DNA of 64,000 bases. It comes from a virus. Shown one piece after another: positions 20,839 to 64,000 of this stretch. The position numbers and the translations under genes were made by a program. The stretch is from positions 1 through 64,000 of the IMG/VR virus record IMGVR_UViG_3300045988_131228; one strand, 5' to 3'. The notes beneath the pieces are model-generated. The model was not told the origin of the DNA and made no database searches. It saw only the letters and a program-made list of their open reading frames with translations. Position 1 is the first letter of the stretch, and each line of letters opens with the position of its first letter.

Positions 20839-21699
20839 ATGAGAAAATCAAAAGACGACAAAAACAACACAACTACTACTATTACACCATCAGCATCTGA
20901 TAAGACACCAATTGAGATTGCATTACAGATTGATAAAGACGGAATGACAACGGCAAGTAAGTTATATTCATTTCTTGAATTAGATATTACTCATTTTTCA
21001 AGATGGTGTCGTAAAAATATTGTAAATAATAAATTTGCTACTGAAAATGAAGATTATGTAATTTTAGCCATTAATGGCGATAATTCATCTAAAGGTAGAC
21101 CAAAAACAGATTATAAACTTACATCTGAATTTGCAAAGAAACTTTCAATGACAGGTAACACCGAAAAACATGAGCAAGCAAGAGATTATTTTATTGCTTG
21201 TGAGCAAGGATTTAAAATTGCTACTGTTAAACTACAAGCAAGAAATGATGATATTCAAGCTTTAGCACAAAATGTAAATAATCTTGTACAAAAGATTGAT
21301 AGTAAATTTGATTCATTAGAAACAAGAGTATCTACATTAGAAAACAACACTACTACTCTAAAATCATTACCAAAGAAACAGCGATTTACATACTGGTCAT
21401 CAAAAATGTTTCCTAAATATCAAGCATTAGCAGAATATTTTGAAATTCAACTGAAAGATCTCTATAAGAATCTATATAGAGAATTTCAGAATATGTATCC
21501 TGATATTGAGCTAAACCAGATTGTAGATGATTATTGCTATGAGAATAAATTAGAAACTTGTTACACCTTAGACGCAATAGAGCATGATAAAACCGTAAGA
21601 GTATTATTTGAACAGTTAGTAGATACTCTTTTGGAGAAATATGATTTAGTACTTCATAAAGAGAAACTTGTAATGTCAACAATTTTTGACACAAAATAA
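20839..21699 (+). CDS. AntA/AntB-type antirepressor-domain protein
   Basis: 286 aa. ASKLYSFLELDITHFSRWCRKNIVNNKFATENEDYV and GRPKTDYKLTSEFAKKLSMTGNTEKHEQARDYFIACEQ. Confidence 0.55.
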   Translation: MRKSKDDKNNTTTTITPSASDKTPIEIALQIDKDGMTTASKLYSFLELDITHFSRWCRKNIVNNKFATENEDYVILAINGDNSSKGRPKTDYKLTSEFAKKLSMTGNTEKHEQARDYFIACEQGFKIATVKLQARNDDIQALAQNVNNLVQKIDSKFDSLETRVSTLENNTTTLKSLPKKQRFTYWSSKMFPKYQALAEYFEIQLKDLYKNLYREFQNMYPDIELNQIVDDYCYENKLETCYTLDAIEHDKTVRVLFEQLVDTLLEKYDLVLHKEKLVMSTIFDTK

Positions 21700-22385: not shown

Positions 22386-23561
22386 GTGAGAATCATTAAT
22401 AAAAACACAAATAATTATAAAGTGTATATACATACTAACATATTAAATGATAAGAAATATATTGGTATAACAAAAACATCAGAAAGAGAAAGATGGAATA
22501 ACGGAAATGGTTATCATAAAAATCAAAAATTCTATGAAGATATTCAAAAATATGGTTGGGATGATGGATTCACTCATGAGATCATACAAGACAATTTATC
22601 ATATAGTGAAGCAAGGCGTTTGGAGAAGTATTATATATCAAAATATAATTCTGTTTCAAATGGATATAACAATGCAAATTTTAATTTAAGTGGATCTTTA
22701 CAATTTGATTTTGATAATTTCATTCCAATAGATAATCCTGATGGAGAAATAAATAATAACAAGGAATATTTTACAAGAGTACCAAATGAATTTATACAAA
22801 TTGACATTAGAAAGAAATATAATCTTCACAGAATATTTTATGTTGTATATATTCTTATTGATAAACATAGAAGTTACGAGGATAAATCATACATTGTAAT
22901 TTCAGAAATATTTGATTTATGTGGTTATAAACTTGGTAAAAACAAACCAAAGGTATTTTATGAAATTATAAAATGTTTACTATTCTTAAATGAAAGTAAC
23001 ATGATTAGAATTACATCTAATTTTGATATTTACGCTGTTGGATATACTGATTGTATTCAAATGGATATTATATATTCTAATTTTGACGCAACAGATAAAT
23101 TCTCAAAAATTACATCTTCACAACTTGACTTTATAATGATGAGTGAATCAAGTATTAATAAAGAGAATATATTAATGGCATTCCTTTATATCAATTCTTA
23201 TATTTTTATTCGTCCAAAGAATAAAAATAATGAAGAAATAATAAGTGATCCGAAATCTAAACCAGAAGCATTTTTTCGCAGCATGGAAAGTATGGCAAAA
23301 GAATTGGCAATTTCAAAAGATACATTAAATCAATGTATTCAATGTTTAACTTCTTCTAGTGAAAACCAAAAACCTCTTTTGATAAAAAGAGAAGTAGGTA
23401 GTATACAACCAGATCCTAAAAAGCCACCACAAAATGTTCCAAATATCTATGTACTTAATAAAGAAGGATATGAACAAGAAATTGAATGGGCTATTTTAAA
23501 GATGCTAGAAGTATATAATGTAGATTCATTTGGAGAATTAACAGGTAAGGATGTGAAATAA
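22386..23561 (+). CDS. GIY-YIG family (homing) endonuclease with a long C-terminal extension
   Basis: YKVYIHT..KKYIGIT..RW..YSEARRLEKYYISKYNS..NGYN matches the GIY / YIG / R / E / N motif order. 391 aa. Confidence 0.75.
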   Translation: MRIINKNTNNYKVYIHTNILNDKKYIGITKTSERERWNNGNGYHKNQKFYEDIQKYGWDDGFTHEIIQDNLSYSEARRLEKYYISKYNSVSNGYNNANFNLSGSLQFDFDNFIPIDNPDGEINNNKEYFTRVPNEFIQIDIRKKYNLHRIFYVVYILIDKHRSYEDKSYIVISEIFDLCGYKLGKNKPKVFYEIIKCLLFLNESNMIRITSNFDIYAVGYTDCIQMDIIYSNFDATDKFSKITSSQLDFIMMSESSINKENILMAFLYINSYIFIRPKNKNNEEIISDPKSKPEAFFRSMESMAKELAISKDTLNQCIQCLTSSSENQKPLLIKREVGSIQPDPKKPPQNVPNIYVLNKEGYEQEIEWAILKMLEVYNVDSFGELTGKDVK

Positions 23562-28599: not shown

Positions 28600-29478
28600 A
28601 CAATGTTATTGTTACGATTATGTGGCTTGACACAGATAGTATATCGTGAGGTATATAAAGATAGATTTACACCCTATCGCTATAGAAATATAGTCAATTC
28701 AAGCAAAACTGACATACCAGTAACTCAAAAGGTTGCGTTTCGCAATTGAGTCTATGCGGAAATAGTATGTATTATAAGGAGCGATAAAGTGATTTAGGGG
28801 CGACCGCTGAGAATTACTTTTTGACCGCAAATCAGATAGCTCATGCAAACTTATATGCATATAATGGTGAATCAGGAGGATAAATAGTGCGAGAAATTAT
28901 TAATCGAGTGCATTATCCATTTATATGAGTATATTACTTATATGAACGTTTAGTAGGGATTATAACTGAAAGACATGAAGGTGTGATGTATTTTTGTTCT
29001 CAAAAGGAATGAAAGCGTCTGGTGTAGCACATCTTCTGTAACTTGGACTTAAACTTGTTGTAAAGTAGAATAATATTATCGGGAATGGTGGAATGCCGTT
29101 TACGTTTAAAAGGTAAAAGAATATTTATATACTTAAATATTACATACAAAGCGAAAGTCTACACCTCTACATGGTGAAAACAACCTAATTCCATAGTACT
29201 TATAAGAGTATAATATGGACATTAATAAGTCTCGCAAGACTTTGAGATGTTTGATCGAGTTTGCACAGTTCTCTTAGCGGAGATTTATAGCACGGCGGTG
29301 TTAATGGAATAATAAAATCAGAGTAGTCATGTAGTAAAAGAGAAATGCCACTCTTTCAAAAAGGCGGTTGTGGAAGTTTACTATATATGCGTAAGGTATA
29401 TAGTGGATACGGAAAGAACTCATAATGTTCTAAAAGAACTTCTGTATAAATGTGTAATCTCAGCATTTATAATAATAA
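28600..29478 (+). ncRNA. candidate large structured non-coding RNA between tRNA genes (ROOL/GOLLD-class hypothesis)
   Basis: About 0.9 kb with no ORF of 60 aa or more on either strand. TTGACA at 28627. Many local hairpins, e.g. 28922-28944, 29228-29241, 29381-29403, 29412-29430. Confidence 0.3.
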
Positions 29479-30708: not shown

Positions 30709-31986
30709 TTGGTAAACAATCGTAAATATAAAGAATTTAAACCAAAGGACATTGATTTTGTATTTATCACTCACAATCATGGGGATCACTGCTTGTTATT
30801 ACCGAAATTATATAAAGAAGGATGTAGAGCTGCCACTATTGTTTCAGAAGGATCAAAGCAAGTTTTGAAAGATATGGCAATTGATTCTGCTTTAATTAGT
30901 GAAAGAGACATATTGGTTATCAATTCTCAGAATAATAAGAATTATTCTCCACTTTATTCTATAGAAGATGTAAATAAAATGTTGGAATACACATTGGAAA
31001 AACCAGTAAATGAAAAAATTATTATTGATGATGAATTAGCTTTTGAGTTAATTCCAAGTGGTCATCTTCTTGGAAGTTGTCAAGTGAAATTATATTTTAC
31101 TGTTGATGGATTGACAAAAACCTGTTTAGTCACAGGAGATTTAGGAAATAAGATAATTCATAATAGATTTGTTGGTGAATATCAACAAGTAGATTATGCT
31201 GATGTTGTTATTGGAGAATCAACATACGGAGATAGACCAGATTTAAAAACTGGACTTAAAGAACGAAAAAATGATTTAGAAAAATTTAAAGCAATTATAG
31301 AAACACAAGTTCATGAAATGAAAGGACGGGTTGTTATCCCAAGTTTTGCGCAATCAAGACTTCAACAACTTGTGCTGATGATTTATGAAATGTATAAAGA
31401 TTCTCAATGGAAACCAAAAGTATATATAGATTCACCATTGTCTATTAAAATTTTTGATGATTATGACGAATGCTTGACTGGTGAAGATAAAAAACTTTTT
31501 GATGAAATGATTCAAGATAAGATGTTTACTTTTGTAAAAGAATCCGAAGACAGTAAATCACTTGTACAAAGTAATGAACCTTGTGTAATTTTATCGACCA
31601 GTGGAATGTGCATGGTCGGCAGGATCAGGCATCATTTAAAAAAATGTATTCCAAATCCTAATGCTACGATGCTCTTTGTGGGATTCAGTACAGATGGAAG
31701 CCTTGCTTCACTTTTAAAGGATAATAAACAAAAATTTGTTACCATTGACCAAAAAGAATATCCTTGTAGATGTGCTTCTTATTCATTAAAATCAATGAGT
31801 GGACACGCACCATTCTGGCAACTGATAGATGACTATACAAAAATTAATAGTCAAAAGATTGTCTTACATCATGGTTCCAAACAAGCAAAAGAAACTTTAA
31901 AAATTGCTCTGGAAAAAGAATTGGAGAAACAATGTAAGTCAACAAGAGTTGTAATTGCTAACTCAAGTTTGAAATTTACATTATAA
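30709..31986 (+). CDS. metallo-beta-lactamase-fold beta-CASP nuclease (RNase J/CPSF-like); the true N-terminus lies upstream of this TTG
   Basis: FVFITHNHGDHCLLLP carries the HxHxDH motif. The same frame is open from 30547 and encodes KISFVDSPSSEDVTGSLIYISTQNHRILVDCGLHQ. Confidence 0.75.
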   Translation: MVNNRKYKEFKPKDIDFVFITHNHGDHCLLLPKLYKEGCRAATIVSEGSKQVLKDMAIDSALISERDILVINSQNNKNYSPLYSIEDVNKMLEYTLEKPVNEKIIIDDELAFELIPSGHLLGSCQVKLYFTVDGLTKTCLVTGDLGNKIIHNRFVGEYQQVDYADVVIGESTYGDRPDLKTGLKERKNDLEKFKAIIETQVHEMKGRVVIPSFAQSRLQQLVLMIYEMYKDSQWKPKVYIDSPLSIKIFDDYDECLTGEDKKLFDEMIQDKMFTFVKESEDSKSLVQSNEPCVILSTSGMCMVGRIRHHLKKCIPNPNATMLFVGFSTDGSLASLLKDNKQKFVTIDQKEYPCRCASYSLKSMSGHAPFWQLIDDYTKINSQKIVLHHGSKQAKETLKIALEKELEKQCKSTRVVIANSSLKFTL

Positions 31987-36909: not shown

Positions 36910-37977
36910 ATGCAAAAATTTATGAAAGGAAGTGAGCAAATGGCAGGAAGAACTGTACAATATAATGTTTTAACAACACCAGAAAAATTACAACAAGTTA
37001 ATCCAGATAATGTTGAATTAGGAAATGACTTTTTAGATTATCTTGTATCAGTAGACAGAGCAAGATCAACAATTGACGCATATGCTCACGATCTTAACGT
37101 TTTTTGGGTATATCTATTAGAAAAATGCAACAACAAATTTTTTATTAATTTGTCTAAACGTGAAATTTCTAAGTATCAAAGTTATTGTTTAACGGAATTG
37201 AAATGGAGTCCTGCGAGAATTAAAAGGGTTAAATCTACTCTCTCATCTCTTAGCAATTATGTTGAAAATATGTTGGATGATGAGTATGAAGGATTTCGTC
37301 CAATTATTCGTAAAATAGAAAATCCAACAAATGAAAAAGTATTAAAGAAAACTGTATTCACAGAAGAACAATTACAAGGTTTATTAGATCATCTTGTTGA
37401 AAAGGAACAATACGATAAAGCATGTATGCTAAGTATGGCTATGAATAATGGTAGACGTAAAAGTGAATTGCCACGTTTTAAAGTTTCATATTTTGATGAT
37501 GAAAATATCATTTATGGTTCTTTATATAAAACTCCCGAAACTATCACTACTAAAGGTAGAGGATCAAGAGGAAAACAACTTATCGTATATACATTGGTAA
37601 AACCATTTAAACCATATTTAGATTTATGGCTGAAATATAGAGAAGAAAATAATATTACTTCTGAATGGTTATTCCCTAAAAAAGTAGGAAATAAATATGT
37701 TGATGAACAAATTTCTACAGATACCTTGGATAGTTGGGCTGAAACATTTAGTAAAATATTAGACATTCCGTTTTACTGGCATAGCCTGAGGCACTATTTT
37801 ACGACAAGTTGCGCACGTAGCGGTCTTCCAGATAATGTAATTCAAATGATTATCGGATGGTCTTCATTGGATATGGTAGGGTTATACAAAGATATTGAAG
37901 TAGATGAAGAATTTGAAAAGTATTTTGGTGAAGATGGAATTAAAAAAGTTGAACAAGCTTCGTTAGCAGATTTATAA
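36910..37977 (+). CDS. int: tyrosine recombinase/phage integrase (XerC/D-like)
   Basis: SAM-like N-terminus DFLDYLVSVDRARSTIDAYAHDL. GRRKSEL, HSLRHYFTT, GWSSLDMVGLY. An SD-supported ATG is also present at 36940. Confidence 0.85.
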   Translation: MQKFMKGSEQMAGRTVQYNVLTTPEKLQQVNPDNVELGNDFLDYLVSVDRARSTIDAYAHDLNVFWVYLLEKCNNKFFINLSKREISKYQSYCLTELKWSPARIKRVKSTLSSLSNYVENMLDDEYEGFRPIIRKIENPTNEKVLKKTVFTEEQLQGLLDHLVEKEQYDKACMLSMAMNNGRRKSELPRFKVSYFDDENIIYGSLYKTPETITTKGRGSRGKQLIVYTLVKPFKPYLDLWLKYREENNITSEWLFPKKVGNKYVDEQISTDTLDSWAETFSKILDIPFYWHSLRHYFTTSCARSGLPDNVIQMIIGWSSLDMVGLYKDIEVDEEFEKYFGEDGIKKVEQASLADL

Positions 37978-55884: not shown

Positions 55885-57180
55885 TTGAGTAATCAAAAAA
55901 TAATGCCTAAATTCAAATTAGAAGTTGGAGCATTCTTAGTTTCTGATAAAAGACAACTTCAAATTATTGATCGTGAATATAGACCTAAGATAAAATATAA
56001 AAATGATAAACCATTTACATCAAACGAAAAATGGTACAAATATAAATGTTATAAGTGTGGAAATACTGATTGGGCTATAGAGCAAGCATTATGTGGAAAA
56101 CAAAAGATTGGATGTAACGTATGTTGCAACTCTCCATCAAAAGTTGTTAGTGGTATAAATGATTTAACTATTACCGCAAGATGGATGATTAAATATTTTG
56201 AAAATCCAAAAGATGCAGAAAAATATACCAGAGGTTCAAGTAAAATTGTTGATATGGTTTGCCCCGATTGTGGTAGACATCACAAGAATAAAATATCCAC
56301 AGTATATGCGAATCATAATCTTTCATGTCCATGTCAAGATGGTTGGAGTTATCCAAATAAGTTTATGTATTCAGTTTTAGAACAATCAGGTGTGAACTTT
56401 GAAACTGAGAAAATTTTCGATTGGTCTAAAGGAAGAATGTACGATGATTATATAGAATATAATGGTTTAAAGATTATTACTGAACAGCATGGAATACAAC
56501 ATTATATAGATCATCCACTTAATAAAAAATCACGCAATCTTAAAGAAGAACAAGAAAATGATAAAATGAAATATAATTTAGCTATGGAAAATGGTATAGA
56601 TTATTATTTTACAATTGATTGCAGAGAATCCACAAAAGAACATATCAAAAATTCTATCATCAATTCTGAATTATTTAAAATCTTAAATATAAATCCAGAA
56701 AATATTAATTTTGATAAATGTGATAAATTTGCTTCATCAAATATGGCTAAACAAGTATGTGATTATCGTAATGAACATCCTGATATGACGATGAAAGAAA
56801 TTGCGCCATTATTTCATGTATGCCACGATACTATAAGAAATTGGGTTAAAAAGGGTGCAAAACTTGGTTGGTGTACATATGAGAAATTTGATGATTTAAA
56901 ATTACGGTATCAACGTGAAGATATGCCTGTTAATAATCGTCCTATTCACTGTATCACTACAGATACATACCATCGTAGCGCAACAAAATTTGTAGAATAT
57001 TATCAATCTCTTACAGGAAAGAAACTCTGTGCAAGAAATATTCGTTCAGTATGTACAGGTAAACGTAATCATGTCAATAATATGAATTTTGAATACATTA
57101 CTCAAGAACAATTCAATCAATTAAAAGAAAAATATCCAGATAAAGTATACGGAGAACTATTTGTATCTCACGCATCATAA
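55885..57180 (+). CDS. homing-endonuclease-like protein: Zn-ribbons, PD-(D/E)XK-like core, HTH and a NUMOD-like tail
   Basis: 431 aa. YKCYKCGN..CNVCC, CPDCGRHH..CPCQ, MYDDYIEYNGLKIITEQHGIQH, PIHCITTDTYHRSATKF...IRSVCTGKR. TTG start after AAGGAG. Confidence 0.55.
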   Translation: MSNQKIMPKFKLEVGAFLVSDKRQLQIIDREYRPKIKYKNDKPFTSNEKWYKYKCYKCGNTDWAIEQALCGKQKIGCNVCCNSPSKVVSGINDLTITARWMIKYFENPKDAEKYTRGSSKIVDMVCPDCGRHHKNKISTVYANHNLSCPCQDGWSYPNKFMYSVLEQSGVNFETEKIFDWSKGRMYDDYIEYNGLKIITEQHGIQHYIDHPLNKKSRNLKEEQENDKMKYNLAMENGIDYYFTIDCRESTKEHIKNSIINSELFKILNINPENINFDKCDKFASSNMAKQVCDYRNEHPDMTMKEIAPLFHVCHDTIRNWVKKGAKLGWCTYEKFDDLKLRYQREDMPVNNRPIHCITTDTYHRSATKFVEYYQSLTGKKLCARNIRSVCTGKRNHVNNMNFEYITQEQFNQLKEKYPDKVYGELFVSHAS

Positions 57181-58684: not shown

Positions 58685-59932
58685 ATGGAAAATAAAATTG
58701 AATATTGTTTTGTTATTGATAAAAATAATAAACCATTAGCTCCGACAAAAATTAATAAAGGTTGGTATTTGATTAGAAAAGGTAGAGCTAAATTAAAAAG
58801 TAAATATCCTATGGTGATACAATTAGAAAAAGAAGTTAAATCTGATGAAGACGATGAAAGTCATATGGTTTGTGGCATAGATGACGGTTCTACACATGTT
58901 GGTTTAGCTATTGTTCAGAAATGTCTTACTAAAAATAAAGTAGTGTTTAAAGGAACGATTGAGCAACGCCAGGATGTAAAGCATCTTATGGATGTAAGGC
59001 GTGGATATAGACGTTACCATCGTTACCACAAAAGATACAGACAAGCAAGATTTAATAATCGTTCATCTTCTAAAAGAACTTGTAGATTAGCACCAAGCAT
59101 CAAACAAAAGAAAGACGCTATTTTAAGAGTATTATATCAATTAAATAGCTGGATAGATATTCAAGAATATTACCTTGAAGATGTTTGTATAGATATTCGT
59201 GCAATGACAGATGATTATAAACCTTATAGATGGCAATATCAGAAATCTAATCGCTTAGATGAAAATTTAAGAAAAGCAACTATCCTGAGAGATGGATGTA
59301 GATGTCAAGAATGTGGGAAATCTAACTGTATATTAGAAGTACATCATATTAGAGCAAGAAGATATGGTGGAGCTAATACCATTGGAAATTTAATTACTTT
59401 ATGTAAAAAGTGCCATGATAAAACAGAAAGTAGAGAAAAGGATTTTGAAGAAAGATATTTCAATATGATTAAATCTAAGCCAAAAAGATTTGATTATGCA
59501 ATGCATGTAATGCAGGGAAAAACTTATTTGAGAGAAAAGATTTCTGAATTAGGAATATTACATCTTACAAATGGTGGAGAAACTGCTAATAAACGTATTG
59601 AGTGGAACATAGTAAAATCTCATAGTAATGATGCCATATGTATTGCAGATGGCATCCCAGATACTTGTGATATTAAAGAGTGGATTATTAAACCAATGAG
59701 AAGGAAATCAAAGGCAAAAACTGATAATGTGCTAGGAATTAAGCATAGAGATTTAGTTTCTTATACATATAAAAGTGGAGAAACTCATACAGGATATGTT
59801 ACTGCTTTATATCCAGAACAATTGGCTTTAAATTTTCAATCAAAAACTAAACATTGCAAGAAAGTAAATGCACGAAAATGCAGATTACTTTGGAAATTCA
59901 ATAAAATTTACTGGTTAGAACAATGTGTATAA
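58685..59932 (+). CDS. iscB: IscB-type RNA-guided nuclease (PLMP/RRXRR domain, split RuvC with inserted HNH)
   Basis: N-terminal [15 protein letters not shown]; Ruv[17 protein letters not shown]; Arg-rich bridge [22 protein letters not shown]; Ruv[11 protein letters not shown]; [33 protein letters not shown]; Ruv[15 protein letters not shown]. Confidence 0.85.
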
Positions 59933-60741: not shown

Positions 60742-60846
60742 CTATTTGCGTACAACGTGATCGTATATTATAAATGCAATGCCAATGATGTCACAAATGG
60801 CAGTCACTAACATGCACACGCTACCACAGTCGAGTGGGATATACAT
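60742..60846 (-). CDS. small hydrophobic peptide (34 aa), candidate type I toxin-like or membrane peptide
   Basis: Minus strand AAGGAGGTACATAT-ATG. MYIPLDCGSVCMLVTAICDIIGIAFIIYDHVVRK. It is antisense to the surrounding late operon. Confidence 0.4.
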   Translation of the reverse strand: MYIPLDCGSVCMLVTAICDIIGIAFIIYDHVVRK

Positions 60847-61100
60847 ATATGTACCTCCTTGTATTTTATATCTATGTGAAAGGCTAATGCCTGAGTTGTG
60901 AAATGTAGGCATAATCATATAGTTGTTATCTCTCGATTATATGCGCTTAATAGTTTACATCGTAAACCTGATAGCATTCCCTGTGGCATATAAGGATGTT
61001 GGCTCATGTCATATTTTACCAGATTATATTATGTAGTTCAATACAGAACGTTTGTTTAACGGAGGGTACTACTCTCCTATCTTATACGGAGGAAATTGTT

Positions 61101-61466
61101 ATGGGAATAATTATGGATGCAATTGATGCACAAATTATTAGACCAAGAGTTGAAGCTGCTGAACAAGAAGGCTTTCAAATGACTCAAACAGATATTCACA
61201 ATTTTTATTCAAGTGGATCACCTGTAAAATATATCAGAACTGGAACATATGAAAGTTCACCCCGTTCATCTGGTGTATCTGGTGGTAATGGAAATTATCA
61301 TTATGATATTCATTTGAATGTAGCAGAATATCCTTACGGCAAACATAGTGGTTTGCAGATCATGAGTGATATACAAAACAACGGTAGTGGGGTTTTGGGT
61401 ACACCTGGTACGTGGGATGATGCTGTACAGGATATTATAGAAGCCGTAAAAGCTAATTTTAGCTAA
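61101..61466 (+). CDS. hypothetical tail/virion protein
   Basis: 121 aa from the ATG at 61101, after GGAGGAAATTGTT. The track ORF extends upstream to 60996. Confidence 0.5.
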   Translation: MGIIMDAIDAQIIRPRVEAAEQEGFQMTQTDIHNFYSSGSPVKYIRTGTYESSPRSSGVSGGNGNYHYDIHLNVAEYPYGKHSGLQIMSDIQNNGSGVLGTPGTWDDAVQDIIEAVKANFS

Positions 61467-61545
61467 GAGGTATAGCTATCAAAAATCTATAAGAAAGAAA
61501 TAAAATAATGTAACAATTAAACAACATGAATCCTAAATTTCATCG

Positions 61546-61556
61546 TGCGATATAAT
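61546..61556 (+). promoter_or_regulatory. TGCGATATAAT -10 element on the plus strand; candidate antisense (antitoxin) RNA promoter
   Basis: This 11-mer also occurs on the minus strand at 61978-61988 and 62436-62446. Confidence 0.35.
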
Positions 61557-61593
61557 GCAAAAAGAAAAGAAGTCACTATGAAAAACATAGTAA
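61557..61593 (-). terminator. minus-strand intrinsic terminator of small-peptide locus A
   Basis: GTTACTATG ttttt CATAGTGAC, then TTCTTTTCTTTTT on the minus strand. Confidence 0.55.
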
Positions 61594-61662
61594 CTTCCCT
61601 CTCCCTCTCTTTACGACCTATATACACTTGTTTCCTCTTCTCATCTCCTGATAGACTTTGGA

Positions 61663-61821
61663 TTATTCTTTGTAGAATTTGCAAGAAAATTTTATTCCGT
61701 TTTGTAAACTAAAACTGAATTGCAATTCTCTTGCTTTCTTGGAAAGAATACGATGGATGGCAAAGTATCCTAACCCAAGTAACCCAAAGTCAAAACCATG
61801 TGACAGTATTAGGTCAACCAT
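61663..61821 (-). CDS. small hydrophobic peptide A (52 aa), candidate type I toxin
   Basis: GGGAGGTGAAAC-ATG. MVDLILSHGFDFGLLGLGYFAIHRILSKKARELQFSFSLQNGIKFSCKFYKE. Collinear paralogue of peptide B. Confidence 0.5.
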   Translation of the reverse strand: MVDLILSHGFDFGLLGLGYFAIHRILSKKARELQFSFSLQNGIKFSCKFYKE

Positions 61822-61977
61822 GTTTCACCTCCCTTCTGTTATTATCAACTTCGGGGAAATGATTCGTGGAGAACCCACGTAGATTGGATATTTCCATAAA
61901 GAGGTACTCACTTTCTCTGTCTTAGCAGAAAGCTTGGTTAATAAGTTACACTTCAAAGATGACTTTGATTCTTTATG

Positions 61978-61988
61978 ATTATATCGCA
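61978..61988 (-). promoter_or_regulatory. TGCGATATAAT -10 element driving locus A (about 150-nt 5' UTR)
   Basis: Minus strand TGCGATATAATC; TTGTGT lies 17 nt upstream. Confidence 0.45.
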
Positions 61989-62029
61989 AATGAACAATCA
62001 ACACAACAATAAAATCGCTACTGATAGAT

Positions 62030-62066
62030 ATATAAAAGAAAAGAAGCTACTATGCGATATGGTAAC
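62030..62066 (-). terminator. minus-strand intrinsic terminator of small-peptide locus B
   Basis: Imperfect hairpin GTTACCATATCGCATAGTAGC, then TTCTTTTCTTTT on the minus strand. Confidence 0.45.
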
Positions 62067-62123
62067 TTCTCTTTCTACGTCATGAAATTTTCATATGATC
62101 TCTCTTCTCCTATTTTTCAGCAC

Positions 62124-62279
62124 TTAATCTTTGTAGAACGAGCAATTAATATCTATATCCACAAGTCCGATATGAAAATGAAAATTTTTTACTCTCTTTG
62201 CGAAAATATGGTTGATACTAAAACATACAACACAAAGACCTGCAAATTTCAGTGCATAATCAAGTATAAGATCAATCAC
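62124..62279 (-). CDS. small hydrophobic peptide B (51 aa), candidate type I toxin
   Basis: AGGAGGTAAATC-GTG. (M)IDLILDYALKFAGLCVVCFSINHIFAKRVKNFHFHIGLVDIDINCSFYKD. Confidence 0.5.
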   Translation of the reverse strand: MIDLILDYALKFAGLCVVCFSINHIFAKRVKNFHFHIGLVDIDINCSFYKD

Positions 62280-62435
62280 GATTTACCTCCTTTCTGTTAG
62301 ACTACAACATTCAGGAAAATAAATTGTGAAGAACTCACAGAACTTATAAAGATTTTCATGAGATGTTATACCTTTCTTAATAAGCAAAGGTGTTTACAAG
62401 TTACACTTCTCAGCACGTAGCTTCGATTCTTTTTA

Positions 62436-62446
62436 ATTATATCGCA
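62436..62446 (-). promoter_or_regulatory. TGCGATATAAT -10 element driving locus B (about 150-nt 5' UTR)
   Basis: Minus strand TTGAAT, 17 nt, TATAAT. Confidence 0.5.
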
Positions 62447-62482
62447 GAAATTTAGACAATTCAATAAATAATATCGTAGTTC

Positions 62483-62520
62483 ACTCTCCTTTCTTTCGGA
62501 GAGTTTTATTTTTTTGTAAG
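62483..62520 (+). terminator. intrinsic terminator upstream of the tape-measure gene
   Basis: ACTCTCC tttctttc GGAGAGT, then TTTTATTTTTTT. Confidence 0.55.
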
Positions 62521-62538: not shown

Positions 62539-64000
62539 ATGGGAGCGCAATTTCAAGTTGACGTAAATGTTGTTACTCATGGTGCAGAAAAAGTTAATGA
62601 GCTTGAACAAAAGTTAAGCAAAATGCAAAATAAATCTGTTGATATTAAATTCAATGTTCAAGGTCAAAATCAAATTAACAATATTATACAACAACTCCAA
62701 AATGTTCAGAGACAAGGAATAAACCTTAATCTCAATAATAACAATATGGCACGTTCTGCACAGAATGCAGCACGACAGTATGCGCAAAATTTTCAACGCC
62801 AGATAAATTCTTCAAAATTAAAATATAATATTGACACAGGAAAATATGCAGCCGCATCATCCAGAATGAGCAAACAATTAGGGGCATATGGAACTCAAGA
62901 TACTGCAAATATTCAAAAGGCTACAGCGGCTCTAGCTTCATATAATCAGGCTTTAGATAAACTTCAAAATCATTACAATGGATCTAATGTTTTAGGTAAA
63001 AAACAGTTACAACAAACTTTTCAAGATATAACTAAAGCAGGAGATACTTTTAAGAATACTTTGTCTCAAATTAGAGACGAATCGTCAAAAGCATTATCTC
63101 CGACAGTTGCTAGTGCATCTGGAAATAAAGTTGTTGAGTATATGAACGCTAACTCAAGGGCGGTTAAGAAATATGGCGCAAGTCTAAAAACACTTGAACA
63201 ACAATACCGCTCAATGACAACTATTGAAGAAAAGGCAAACTATGACAAGGTTTTTGCAAATTTAAAATCAAGAATTAGTGCAGAAGGACTATCAGGAAAT
63301 TCATGGTTTGGCGAATTAAAACGTGCCACAGGACAGATTGCGCAATTTGCTGGTGTATATGGTATGTTGCAAAATACTGTAATGCAAATACCATACAAAG
63401 CAATTACGGCAGTAAAAGATTATGATGCTGCTATGACTAATATGCAGATGGCAACAGGTATTTCAAATACCCAAGCGCAAGAACTGATGAATACTTATTC
63501 AGACATGGGTAAGCAATTAAAAGTTACTGGTGTCGATGTTGCTACTTCTGCTACAGAATGGATGAAACAAGGTAAAACAATTGAAGAATCAAACAAACTT
63601 GCACAAGATTCTATTGTTTTATCCAAGATTGGTAATTTGTCTTCCGATGATGCTACAAGAACCATTACCGCTGCTATGAAATCATATGATTTGAATGAGT
63701 CTCAAGTTATGGATTTTGTTGATCAGATTTCTGCAATTGATATGGCTTCTGCTACTGATGTTGGCGGTCTTGCAGATGCTTTTAATGAAGTTGCAGCCAA
63801 TGCCAATCAAGCAGGAATTAGTACAAAACAACTTCTCTCCTATGCTGCTGTAATTGGTGAAACAACTCAGGAGGGTATGTCTTCTGTTGGTACATCTCTT
63901 AATGCTATCTTTTCTCGTATGGGTAATATTAAACTTTCACGTTTAAAAGATTATCAAAATGGTGGAGAAGATTTATCTAATGTAGAAACTGTATTGAGAG
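62539..64000 (+). CDS. tail tape-measure protein (5' part; runs off the window)
   Basis: ORF open from the ATG at 62539 (after AAAGGAGAATAAATTACT) to the window end. TP901-type core AMTNMQMATGIS..AQELMN...ATSATEWMKQG...VGGLADAFNEVAANANQAGIS...VGTSLNAIFSRM. Confidence 0.8.
   Translation, partial: MGAQFQVDVNVVTHGAEKVNELEQKLSKMQNKSVDIKFNVQGQNQINNIIQQLQNVQRQGINLNLNNNNMARSAQNAARQYAQNFQRQINSSKLKYNIDTGKYAAASSRMSKQLGAYGTQDTANIQKATAALASYNQALDKLQNHYNGSNVLGKKQLQQTFQDITKAGDTFKNTLSQIRDESSKALSPTVASASGNKVVEYMNANSRAVKKYGASLKTLEQQYRSMTTIEEKANYDKVFANLKSRISAEGLSGNSWFGELKRATGQIAQFAGVYGMLQNTVMQIPYKAITAVKDYDAAMTNMQMATGISNTQAQELMNTYSDMGKQLKVTGVDVATSATEWMKQGKTIEESNKLAQDSIVLSKIGNLSSDDATRTITAAMKSYDLNESQVMDFVDQISAIDMASATDVGGLADAFNEVAANANQAGISTKQLLSYAAVIGETTQEGMSSVGTSLNAIFSRMGNIKLSRLKDYQNGGEDLSNVETVLR

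Follow-up and report, generated by a model that had tools for sequence, protein, structure and literature searches.

Two small leftward genes are described here in a 64,000-nt stretch of viral DNA (positions 1 to 64,000 of the IMG/VR virus record IMGVR_UViG_3300045988_131228), which is referred to below as the window. Gene A (61663-61821, minus strand) and gene B (62124-62279, minus strand) lie in two paralogous, autonomously organised moron cassettes that are counter-oriented to the tail operon and occupy a recombination hotspot. Tentatively, each cassette is viewed as a translationally locked membrane-peptide moron, and the two may well belong to a new type I toxin-antitoxin (TA)-like family of the 3'-overlap kind. 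As to function, the analogy draws on the anatomy of the cassettes and on published precedents from SPbeta and from C. difficile phages (PMC5848175, PMC6563280, PMC7699646). The initial annotation had proposed type I TA-like modules at this place. The leftward peptide loci of that proposal were upheld, and its antitoxin half is putative. The analysis adds that the phage is SPbeta-like and that the mRNA is predicted to be strongly structured and to hide its Shine-Dalgarno sequence (SD).

Units A and B, about 460 bp each, align end to end with 78% mean column identity. A repeat search returned six collinear direct-repeat families with a spacing of 455-474 nt across the two units. The paralogy of the loci had been recognised before, as had the two open reading frames (ORFs) with M(V/I)DLIL starts and C(K/S)FYK(E/D) ends, the strong SDs, three copies of TGCGATATAAT and the shared leader word GAAGTGTAAC, and all were found as described. 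The coding sequence (CDS) of A starts with ATG and specifies 52 aa (MVDLILSHGFDFGLLGLGYFAIHRILSKKARELQFSFSLQNGIKFSCKFYKE); the identical peptide occurs in four IMG/VR contigs. CDS B starts with GTG and specifies 51 aa (MIDLILDYALKFAGLCVVCFSINHIFAKRVKNFHFHIGLVDIDINCSFYKD). The SDs are GGGAGGT (61827-61833) for A and AGGAGGT (62285-62291) for B, and a strong SD stands at the correct spacing in all intact copies.

Promoter B (62436-62464, minus strand) combines a -35 element TTGAAT (62459-62464), a 17-nt spacer and a -10 element TATAAT (62436-62441). It was called by a promoter scan, and was also called in the relatives L025 and L013. Promoter A (61978-62006, minus strand) was read from the sequence as TTGTGT (62001-62006), a 17-nt spacer and TATAAT (61978-61983). 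Exact copies of TGCGATATAAT number only three in the 64 kb: 61978-61988 and 62436-62446 on the minus strand and 61546-61556 on the plus strand. GAAGTGTAAC has only two exact copies (61945-61954 and 62400-62409), both on the minus strand, one per leader. It was discarded as a special motif, being the 3' arm of the 5'-terminal stem-loop. A generic promoter scan gave 11 sites against 11.0 in shuffled sequence, which is no excess, so the promoter assignments rest on motif conservation.

Transcription starts were placed about 7 nt after each -10 element, which gives transcripts of ∼415 nt. Each locus had been credited with a hairpin plus U-run terminator. Terminator A (61553-61601, minus strand), a 16-pair hairpin at 61565-61601 followed by a U-run, was called by the terminator scan, and its hairpin covaries among variants. 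Terminator B (62034-62069, minus strand) has the hairpin (62043-62069) and the U-run (62034-62042) as well. Its hairpin carries one C.A mismatch and was missed by the scan; it aligns with perfect hairpins in relatives. A purine-rich 3' untranslated region (UTR) precedes the terminator of mRNA A (61602-61662, minus strand), and a purine-rich tract is found before the terminator also in six divergent family genes, the D-types. A long hairpin in the 3' half of CDS A (61681-61734, minus strand) shows compensatory changes and contains G-U pairs in the mRNA sense. With its 5' stem-loop, SD-locking leader, CDS hairpin, purine-rich 3' UTR of ∼60-100 nt and strong terminator, the predicted mRNA would appear to be built for stability and poor translation.

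With the putative starts above, the leader of mRNA A (61822-61972, minus strand) contains a 5' stem-loop, the hairpin GUGGGUUCUCCAC (61866-61878), the anti-SD UCAUUUCCCC (61853-61862) and the SD GGGAGGU (61827-61833). The leader of mRNA B (62280-62430, minus strand) contains a 5' stem-loop with GAAGTGTAAC, the GUGAGUUCUUCAC hairpin, the anti-SD UUAUUUUCCU (62313-62324) and the SD at 62285-62291. In the predicted folds the anti-SD of each leader is paired with its SD. The probability that the SD is unpaired was 0.00-0.03 in five intact variants (A 0.00; B 0.03) and 0.22 in L003, a copy with a mutated SD and a frameshifted ORF. RNAalifold, applied to eight A and B leaders, returned 35 pairs of which 7 were compensatory, two of them within the anti-SD:SD helix, and slid controls gave 0-1 compensatory pairs. 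A full-length alignment fold contained 86 pairs, 19 of them compensatory, including the long hairpin in the 3' half of the CDS; most of the covariation in both counts stems from two or three lineages, and the sequences that show it are those that yielded the structure. Compared with shuffled sequences, mRNA A folds with a z-score of -6.29 and its complement with -3.59. The fold of mRNA B is unremarkable (-2.24; complement -2.61).

The leader is conserved across the family. Its ∼150 nt are the best-conserved part of the unit across subfamilies, with the GUGGGUUCUCCAC hairpin nearly invariant. D-type loci also carry this hairpin together with the anti-SD and the context of the SD, and the anti-SD:SD helix is preserved across the family. 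When metagenomes were scanned for the core of the leader with its SD, 51 loci were found, some of them truncated or running off the contig, and the family ORF followed the SD in 51/51. From these comparisons the conserved leader is predicted to lock the SD; the predicted folds show the highly structured mRNA with intrinsically restricted translation that is a mark of type I toxin genes. Pairing between the mRNA ends was also seen. Inverted repeat I2 makes terminator B complementary to the 5' end of mRNA B (62417-62433) over 17 nt (88%), and mRNA A has a similar, weaker complementarity. Only the minimum free energy fold of the window's B uses the 5'-3' pairing, and the terminator hairpin prevails in other variants. 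A fold-back control of mRNA B, in which 62417-62433 pairs with its own 3' end, might resemble that of hok/sok; a processing signal was not identified in the cassette mRNA.

The peptide frame on the minus strand is the sole frame of the six that lacks stop codons in all variants. L008 and L004 differ at 11 positions, 7.3 synonymous and 3.7 non-synonymous, giving a ratio of non-synonymous to synonymous change (pN/pS) of 0.13. The corresponding ratio is 0.49-0.61 between the window's B and the B' alleles of relatives, and 0.37 among the six D-types (15 pairs), which have zero stop codons. The conserved M(V/I)DLIL shows synonymous codon changes between copies. These patterns argue that the minus-strand ORFs are real genes under purifying selection. 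The plus-strand ORFs listed for the region (61679-61882 and 62052-62300) were rejected as genes, having stop codons in variants and zero selection signal; conservation follows the minus-strand frame. The initial annotation had already held them not to be collinear.

Only the two copies A and B of the family are present in the window. A word-indexed search of 5.8 billion proteins returned 11 clusters only, all of this peptide family, one of them carrying the label 'hypothetical protein [Caudoviricetes sp.]'. With HMMER, a complete pass over 1.84 billion representative proteins returned 18 clusters, all of about 50 aa. The family is confined to these large gut phages, and about 60 distinct contexts in phages and metagenomes contain the unit. 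Its consensus is M-x-E-L-x-L, a hydrophobic helix of ∼20 residues, then H-x-I-F-S-K-x-T-K-x-F-H-x-x-I-G-x-x-G-x-x-x-x-x-S-F-Y-K-E. A profile search of the PDB found nothing significant for the peptides, and tblastn and blastn against GenBank phages found zero matches.

A hydrophobic core followed by basic residues had been noted in both peptides. The basic juxtamembrane cluster, SKKxK/R, is indeed conserved. The hydropathy is borderline: the best 19-residue Kyte-Doolittle window scores 1.46 (A), 1.53 (B') and 1.94 (B), with a usual threshold of 1.6, and distant family members have helices clearly more hydrophobic than those of A or B. The C-terminal half is not a simple basic tail. It is a conserved domain of ∼25 aa ending SFYKE, in which the ∼20 residues after the basic cluster form the mixed-charge motif FHxxIGxxGxxxxxSFYKE; over its full length, peptide A carries a net charge of +3 and peptide B one of 0. 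AF2 modelled a helix over residues 2-40 with modest confidence (pLDDT ∼65). The peptide is thus probably of a single-pass membrane type, with an N-terminal helix, the juxtamembrane cluster and the conserved C-terminal domain, and it is less typical of type I toxins than the initial annotation had assumed.

The insert that carries both cassettes (61467-62457, ∼990 bp) is missing in the otherwise collinear relative MT835469.1 (L001), a 176-kb phage from human faeces in which the counterpart of window positions 61011-61466 (93% identity) abuts that of 62458 onward. Occupancy of the site varies among IMG/VR relatives. It may be empty, or hold a single unit of the A type or of the B' type, or a single unit next to an unrelated 285-bp element. 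The window's A+B arrangement is found in relatives too, as is A with a deleted B remnant and another hydrophobic ORF of 56 aa. The cassettes lie on the minus strand between the gene for a 156-aa protein and the tape-measure gene, whose start is at 62539; terminase (44098), portal (45734) and other structural genes are upstream on the plus strand, which agrees with the earlier placement inside the tail operon. Anatomically, each cassette is thus a moron: a promoter and a terminator of its own, in window and relatives, surround a gene unrelated to its neighbours, which is inserted between two late-operon genes and absent from close relatives. Elsewhere, family copies occupy various other tail-gene junctions. 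Among 36 distinct copies with assessable neighbours, both flanking genes are on the opposite strand in 27 and both on the same strand in 1. A native rightward terminator or attenuator found by the terminator scan stands just 5' of the tape-measure gene (62483-62504, plus strand). It is also present at the relative's empty site, and this conservation suggests that transcription is attenuated on passing from the chaperone-like genes into the tape-measure gene.

The closest annotated matches of the terminase are SPbeta-like Bacillus phages (about 40% identity), and closer terminase relatives are on contigs binned with metagenome-assembled genomes (MAGs) of Lachnospiraceae, Eubacterium, Monoglobus and other Clostridia. 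By these matches the phage that bears the cassettes appears to be SPbeta-like, with gut Clostridia as hosts. Genes at 20839-21699 and 36910-37977 (plus strand) specify a protein with an AntA/AntB antirepressor domain and a tyrosine recombinase (Phage_integrase plus SAM-like N-terminal domain), which hints at a temperate lifestyle. Two cassette-bearing metagenome contigs, L081 (420 kb) and L101 (580 kb), are longer than any phage contig seen, and their cassettes may be integrated copies. The peptide patterns matched none of 185,579 bacterial species representatives in a search for prophage copies, and the terminase search led to MAG contigs only.

Several copies of the family have decayed. L003 and L027 have a mutated SD and a frameshift; the B remnant of L010 and L011 lacks the leader and the transmembrane segment and has TATGAT as its -10; and L059-64, L073/L114 and L086/L107 are truncated. 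In tandem arrays the decaying copy is the internal one, which has no convergent promoter. This fits TA logic, and relaxed selection explains it equally well.

The antitoxin half of the model depends on RNA from the opposite strand. The third copy of TGCGATATAAT (61546-61556, plus strand) contains a perfect TATAAT (61551-61556), a candidate antisense promoter. It sits 8-9 nt past terminator A and points into it, and the initial annotation had taken this for the convergent geometry of antitoxin RNAs. None of the A and B' variants has lost the TATAAT, though neighbouring bases vary (TGCAATATAAT, TGTGATATAAT). A hypothetical antisense RNA (61563-61745, plus strand) would begin some 7 nt past the -10; it might end at the hairpin with UUUCUU of 61681-61740, or else run to 62504. 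Its sequence would match, as complement, that of the terminator and the purine-rich 3' UTR as well as the last part of CDS A. The CDS hairpin with UUUCUU/UUUUUU is a possible antisense terminator; it was uncalled by the scans and has its G-U pairs in the mRNA sense. Independently of any such promoter, rightward transcription of the operon must give antisense RNA over the cassettes, because their neighbours are on the opposite strand and zero rightward terminators lie inside. We infer antisense control, and toxicity, of the peptides.

A number of observations weigh against this view, and the lineage structure of the covariation noted above is one of them. The convergent box has no acceptable -35 (ATGAAT is 19 nt away) and was uncalled in promoter scans of the window and relatives. 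It is an inverted-repeat arm of the sense promoter and transcript start (I1, with promoter B, and I7), and could be a remnant of duplication or recombination. Locus B lacks an equivalent, having only TATATA/TATAAA at the corresponding place. The box is loose in the wider family, mostly GAGAATATA(A/T)A without the final T of a -10 and overlapping the T/A-rich terminator tail, and four family subgroups have nothing at the position. The plus-strand terminator scan predicted none inside the cassettes, the first being that at 62483-62504. The G-U pairs in the CDS hairpin favour a function on the sense strand. Pairing in trans of an antisense CU-rich tract with the SD region was rejected, since RNAduplex, a crude test for long RNAs, scored it no better than shuffles (37/200 and 54/200 at least as good). 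On the side of the peptides, A and B' fall just under the usual hydropathy threshold, and a conserved C-terminal domain like theirs is not typical of type I toxins. Family models of Pfam, NCBIfam and PHROGs gave zero matches for the peptides, and Rfam gave zero matches in the region at the gathering threshold and nothing meaningful at E-values up to 10. The cassettes do not belong to a known type I toxin or antitoxin sequence family (Fst, TxpA/BsrG, YonT, C. difficile toxins, Rfam antitoxins).

Known systems supply the precedent. SPbeta carries bsrG/SR4 and yonT/SR6, with 3'-3' overlap, RNase III-dependent decay and, for SR6, a very weak antitoxin promoter (PMC5848175). The SR6 case shows that an antitoxin can work from a weak promoter and that two toxin genes can share a single antitoxin, and the convergent geometry over the toxin 3' end is that of SR4, SR5, SR6 and RatA (PMC5848175). 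Like bsrG/SR4 and yonT-yoyJ/SR6, the cassettes are carried by a related phage and encode a small peptide (38-58 aa), here predicted to be of membrane type, from their own sigma-A promoter; a convergent partner at the 3' end has its putative counterpart here in the candidate box, and the mRNA is structured, with an obstructed ribosome-binding site as predicted for the cassettes. Unlike those systems, in which the antitoxin is demonstrated, they have a candidate antitoxin only, zero sequence similarity to them, and a conserved C-terminal domain. The candidate antisense RNA begins inside the terminator complement without a clear terminator of its own, and the cassettes are set against a tail operon and adjoin its tape-measure gene.

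C. difficile phages carry several type I TA systems (PMC6563280, PMC7699646). The prophage modules CD0977.1/RCd11 and CD0956.2/RCd10 resemble the cassettes in having Clostridia hosts, in being phage-borne with several copies per phage, and in encoding peptides of 34-59 aa with a hydrophobic N-terminus, and standard annotation leaves out their toxin genes (PMC6563280, PMC7699646). In those modules the genes for toxin and antitoxin are convergent and overlapping (PMC6563280, PMC7699646), whereas the antitoxin here is a candidate only. Homology was zero (tblastn, GenBank phages). Type I toxins have a positively charged C-terminal tail (PMC7699646, PMC6563280), and the lysine-rich tail of the C. 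difficile peptides contrasts with the mixed-charge conserved motif found here. txpA/RatA of the skin element and fst/RNA II of pAD1 par resemble the cassettes in transcription that converges over the toxin 3' end or a shared terminator, for which the cassettes have a candidate only, and in a stable, structured toxin mRNA whose 5' structure limits translation, as predicted here. They differ in that the cassettes gave zero Rfam or NCBIfam matches. In par, moreover, a bidirectional terminator and direct repeats yield complementary 5' ends, whereas the inverted repeat here would yield 5' ends that are alike. Phage morons are matched in all their anatomical defining features; that term is defined by anatomy only and is silent on function.

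In the proposed mechanism, each locus would be an autonomous leftward transcription unit set against the tail operon and encoding a membrane peptide of ∼51 aa. RNA from the opposite strand would pair with the 3' UTR and terminator region and lower expression further. This RNA could come from the convergent -10 box (start near 61563), from rightward transcription of the tail operon, or from both, and the resulting duplex might be degraded, as it is by RNase III for bsrG/SR4 and yonT/SR6. The unit would then act as a 3'-overlap type I module whose peptide damages the membrane once the antisense RNA is lost. Locus B, which has no such box, would have to rely on antisense read-through, or may be in decay. 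A more specific form of this mechanism, which we consider improbable, is that late transcription of the phage's tail operon itself is the 'antitoxin', with or without the small convergent promoter. The peptide would be made only if late transcription fails or is absent, and the cassette would be an orientation-dependent addiction or competition device. Such occasions could arise in a lysogen in certain circumstances, when an infection is aborted, or in a competitor that co-infects the cell but has lost the flanking operon, and the cassette would be shuffled among tail-gene junctions.

The main rival to the TA-like reading has a realistic chance of being correct. It holds that the cassettes are accessory membrane-peptide morons without a dedicated antitoxin, non-suicidal, transcribed from their own sigma-A-type promoter and tuned by the leader only. 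Superinfection exclusion, modulation of the host membrane or of lysis timing, and lysogen fitness are examples of roles such a peptide could have. The opposite orientation would silence the peptide gene at the onset of late transcription, and the plus-strand TGCGATATAAT would be an inert inverted copy. The moron anatomy and the variable occupancy are well supported; an antirepressor and a tyrosine recombinase suit a temperate phage in which morons are expressed; evidence for an antisense promoter is weak or inconsistent, with zero antisense terminators predicted; and the conserved C-terminal domain suggests a specific partner over generic membrane damage. Other traits are more characteristic of type I toxin genes than of ordinary morons, however: SD sequestration that compensatory changes maintain, a 3' UTR of some length, paralogues in tandem and copies that repeatedly turn into pseudogenes. 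An inert copy also leaves aside that the TATAAT past the terminator is kept in every A and B' variant.

The inverted copies may reflect how the cassettes move. It is unlikely, though less so than the alternatives below, that a mobile mini-cassette recombines through its repeated promoter and hairpin ends, and that the third TGCGATATAAT came from cassette swapping and does not fire. Such an element may be comparable to the promoter-stem-loop (PeSL) cassettes found in T4-type phages, and it would agree with the TA-like as well as the accessory model of function. A and B' alleles share site and flanks, the tandem A+B and its junction are common to several phages, and the inverted repeat of promoter and transcript start is found at both cassette ends. 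Family copies lie at several tail-gene junctions and homing-endonuclease genes are nearby. A target-site duplication or transposase was not found, and cassette swapping leaves unexplained why the TATAAT is kept while its neighbours vary. The homing-endonuclease ORFs of the window comprise one GIY-YIG and two HNH-type ORFs (22386-23561, 55885-57180 and 58685-59932, plus strand), two of them within the structural block, and fit a region of frequent insertion.

The leader might also be a sensor, that is an RNA thermometer or a ligand- or protein-responsive element that opens the SD, so that regulation is in cis and antisense RNA is not involved. That the leader is the best-conserved part of the unit, with its nearly invariant hairpin, its conserved anti-SD:SD helix and a core that was accompanied by the ORF at every locus of the metagenome scan, is consistent with such a role. 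We regard it as quite improbable nonetheless: Rfam matches were zero up to an E-value of 10 and a ligand pocket or defined element was not identifiable, and leaders that occlude the SD are common in type I toxin mRNAs (PMC5848175), hence compatible with the TA-like reading. That the ORFs are spurious and the units non-coding RNAs, or the plus-strand ORFs the real genes, is hardly credible in spite of the strong minus-strand RNA structure, as the peptide frame is open and under purifying selection while every other frame has stops, the family was recovered by protein-profile search, and intact copies have a strong, correctly spaced SD.

Other small elements are found nearby. A third leftward hydrophobic ORF (60742-60846, minus strand; 34 aa, MYIPLDCGSVCMLVTAICDIIGIAFIIYDHVVRK) lies between the tail-region genes for 239-aa and 156-aa proteins and has the SD AAGGAGGT. 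Its locus (60742-61041, minus strand) includes a leader of ∼160 nt in which the SD is partly paired and a conserved, TG-extended promoter, TTGAAC-17-TAAAAT (61041-61013). Relatives have other alleles at this site, all of which end IYDH. The 34-aa peptide is unrelated to the A/B family and gave zero matches in Pfam/PHROGs/NCBIfam-type libraries or by tblastn. In the same hotspot, L010 and L011 carry the leftward hydrophobic ORF of 56 aa (MDKLINHFRLMIIAIIAVTTIPIILDIAEF...) beside the B-type remnant. The ∼285-bp element that adjoins a cassette in L013 (3325-3381; also in L002 and L004) has a near-consensus promoter with TG, TTGATA-17-TATAAT, then a GTGGAAC...GTTCCAC hairpin and no obvious ORF, and may be a small RNA gene. 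Farther upstream in the window, a GOLLD RNA (28976-29466, plus strand, 172 bits) is flanked by three tRNA genes (28495, 29479 and 30199), and a beta-CASP/RNase J-like ORF (30709-31986, plus strand) follows this region.

If the TA-like reading is true, the type I TA repertoire would gain a family of peptide plus leader that Pfam, PHROGs, NCBIfam and Rfam all lack, and such systems, known from prophages of Bacillus and C. difficile, would then reach large SPbeta-like phages whose gut Clostridia hosts are uncultured. The near-constant counter-orientation within structural operons, together with the SD-locking leader, would make the cassettes a clean system for translational locking and operon-driven antisense control. 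Even if the peptides are non-toxic, they would represent a well-defined and widespread small membrane protein of gut phages that automatic annotation has missed or labelled 'hypothetical'.

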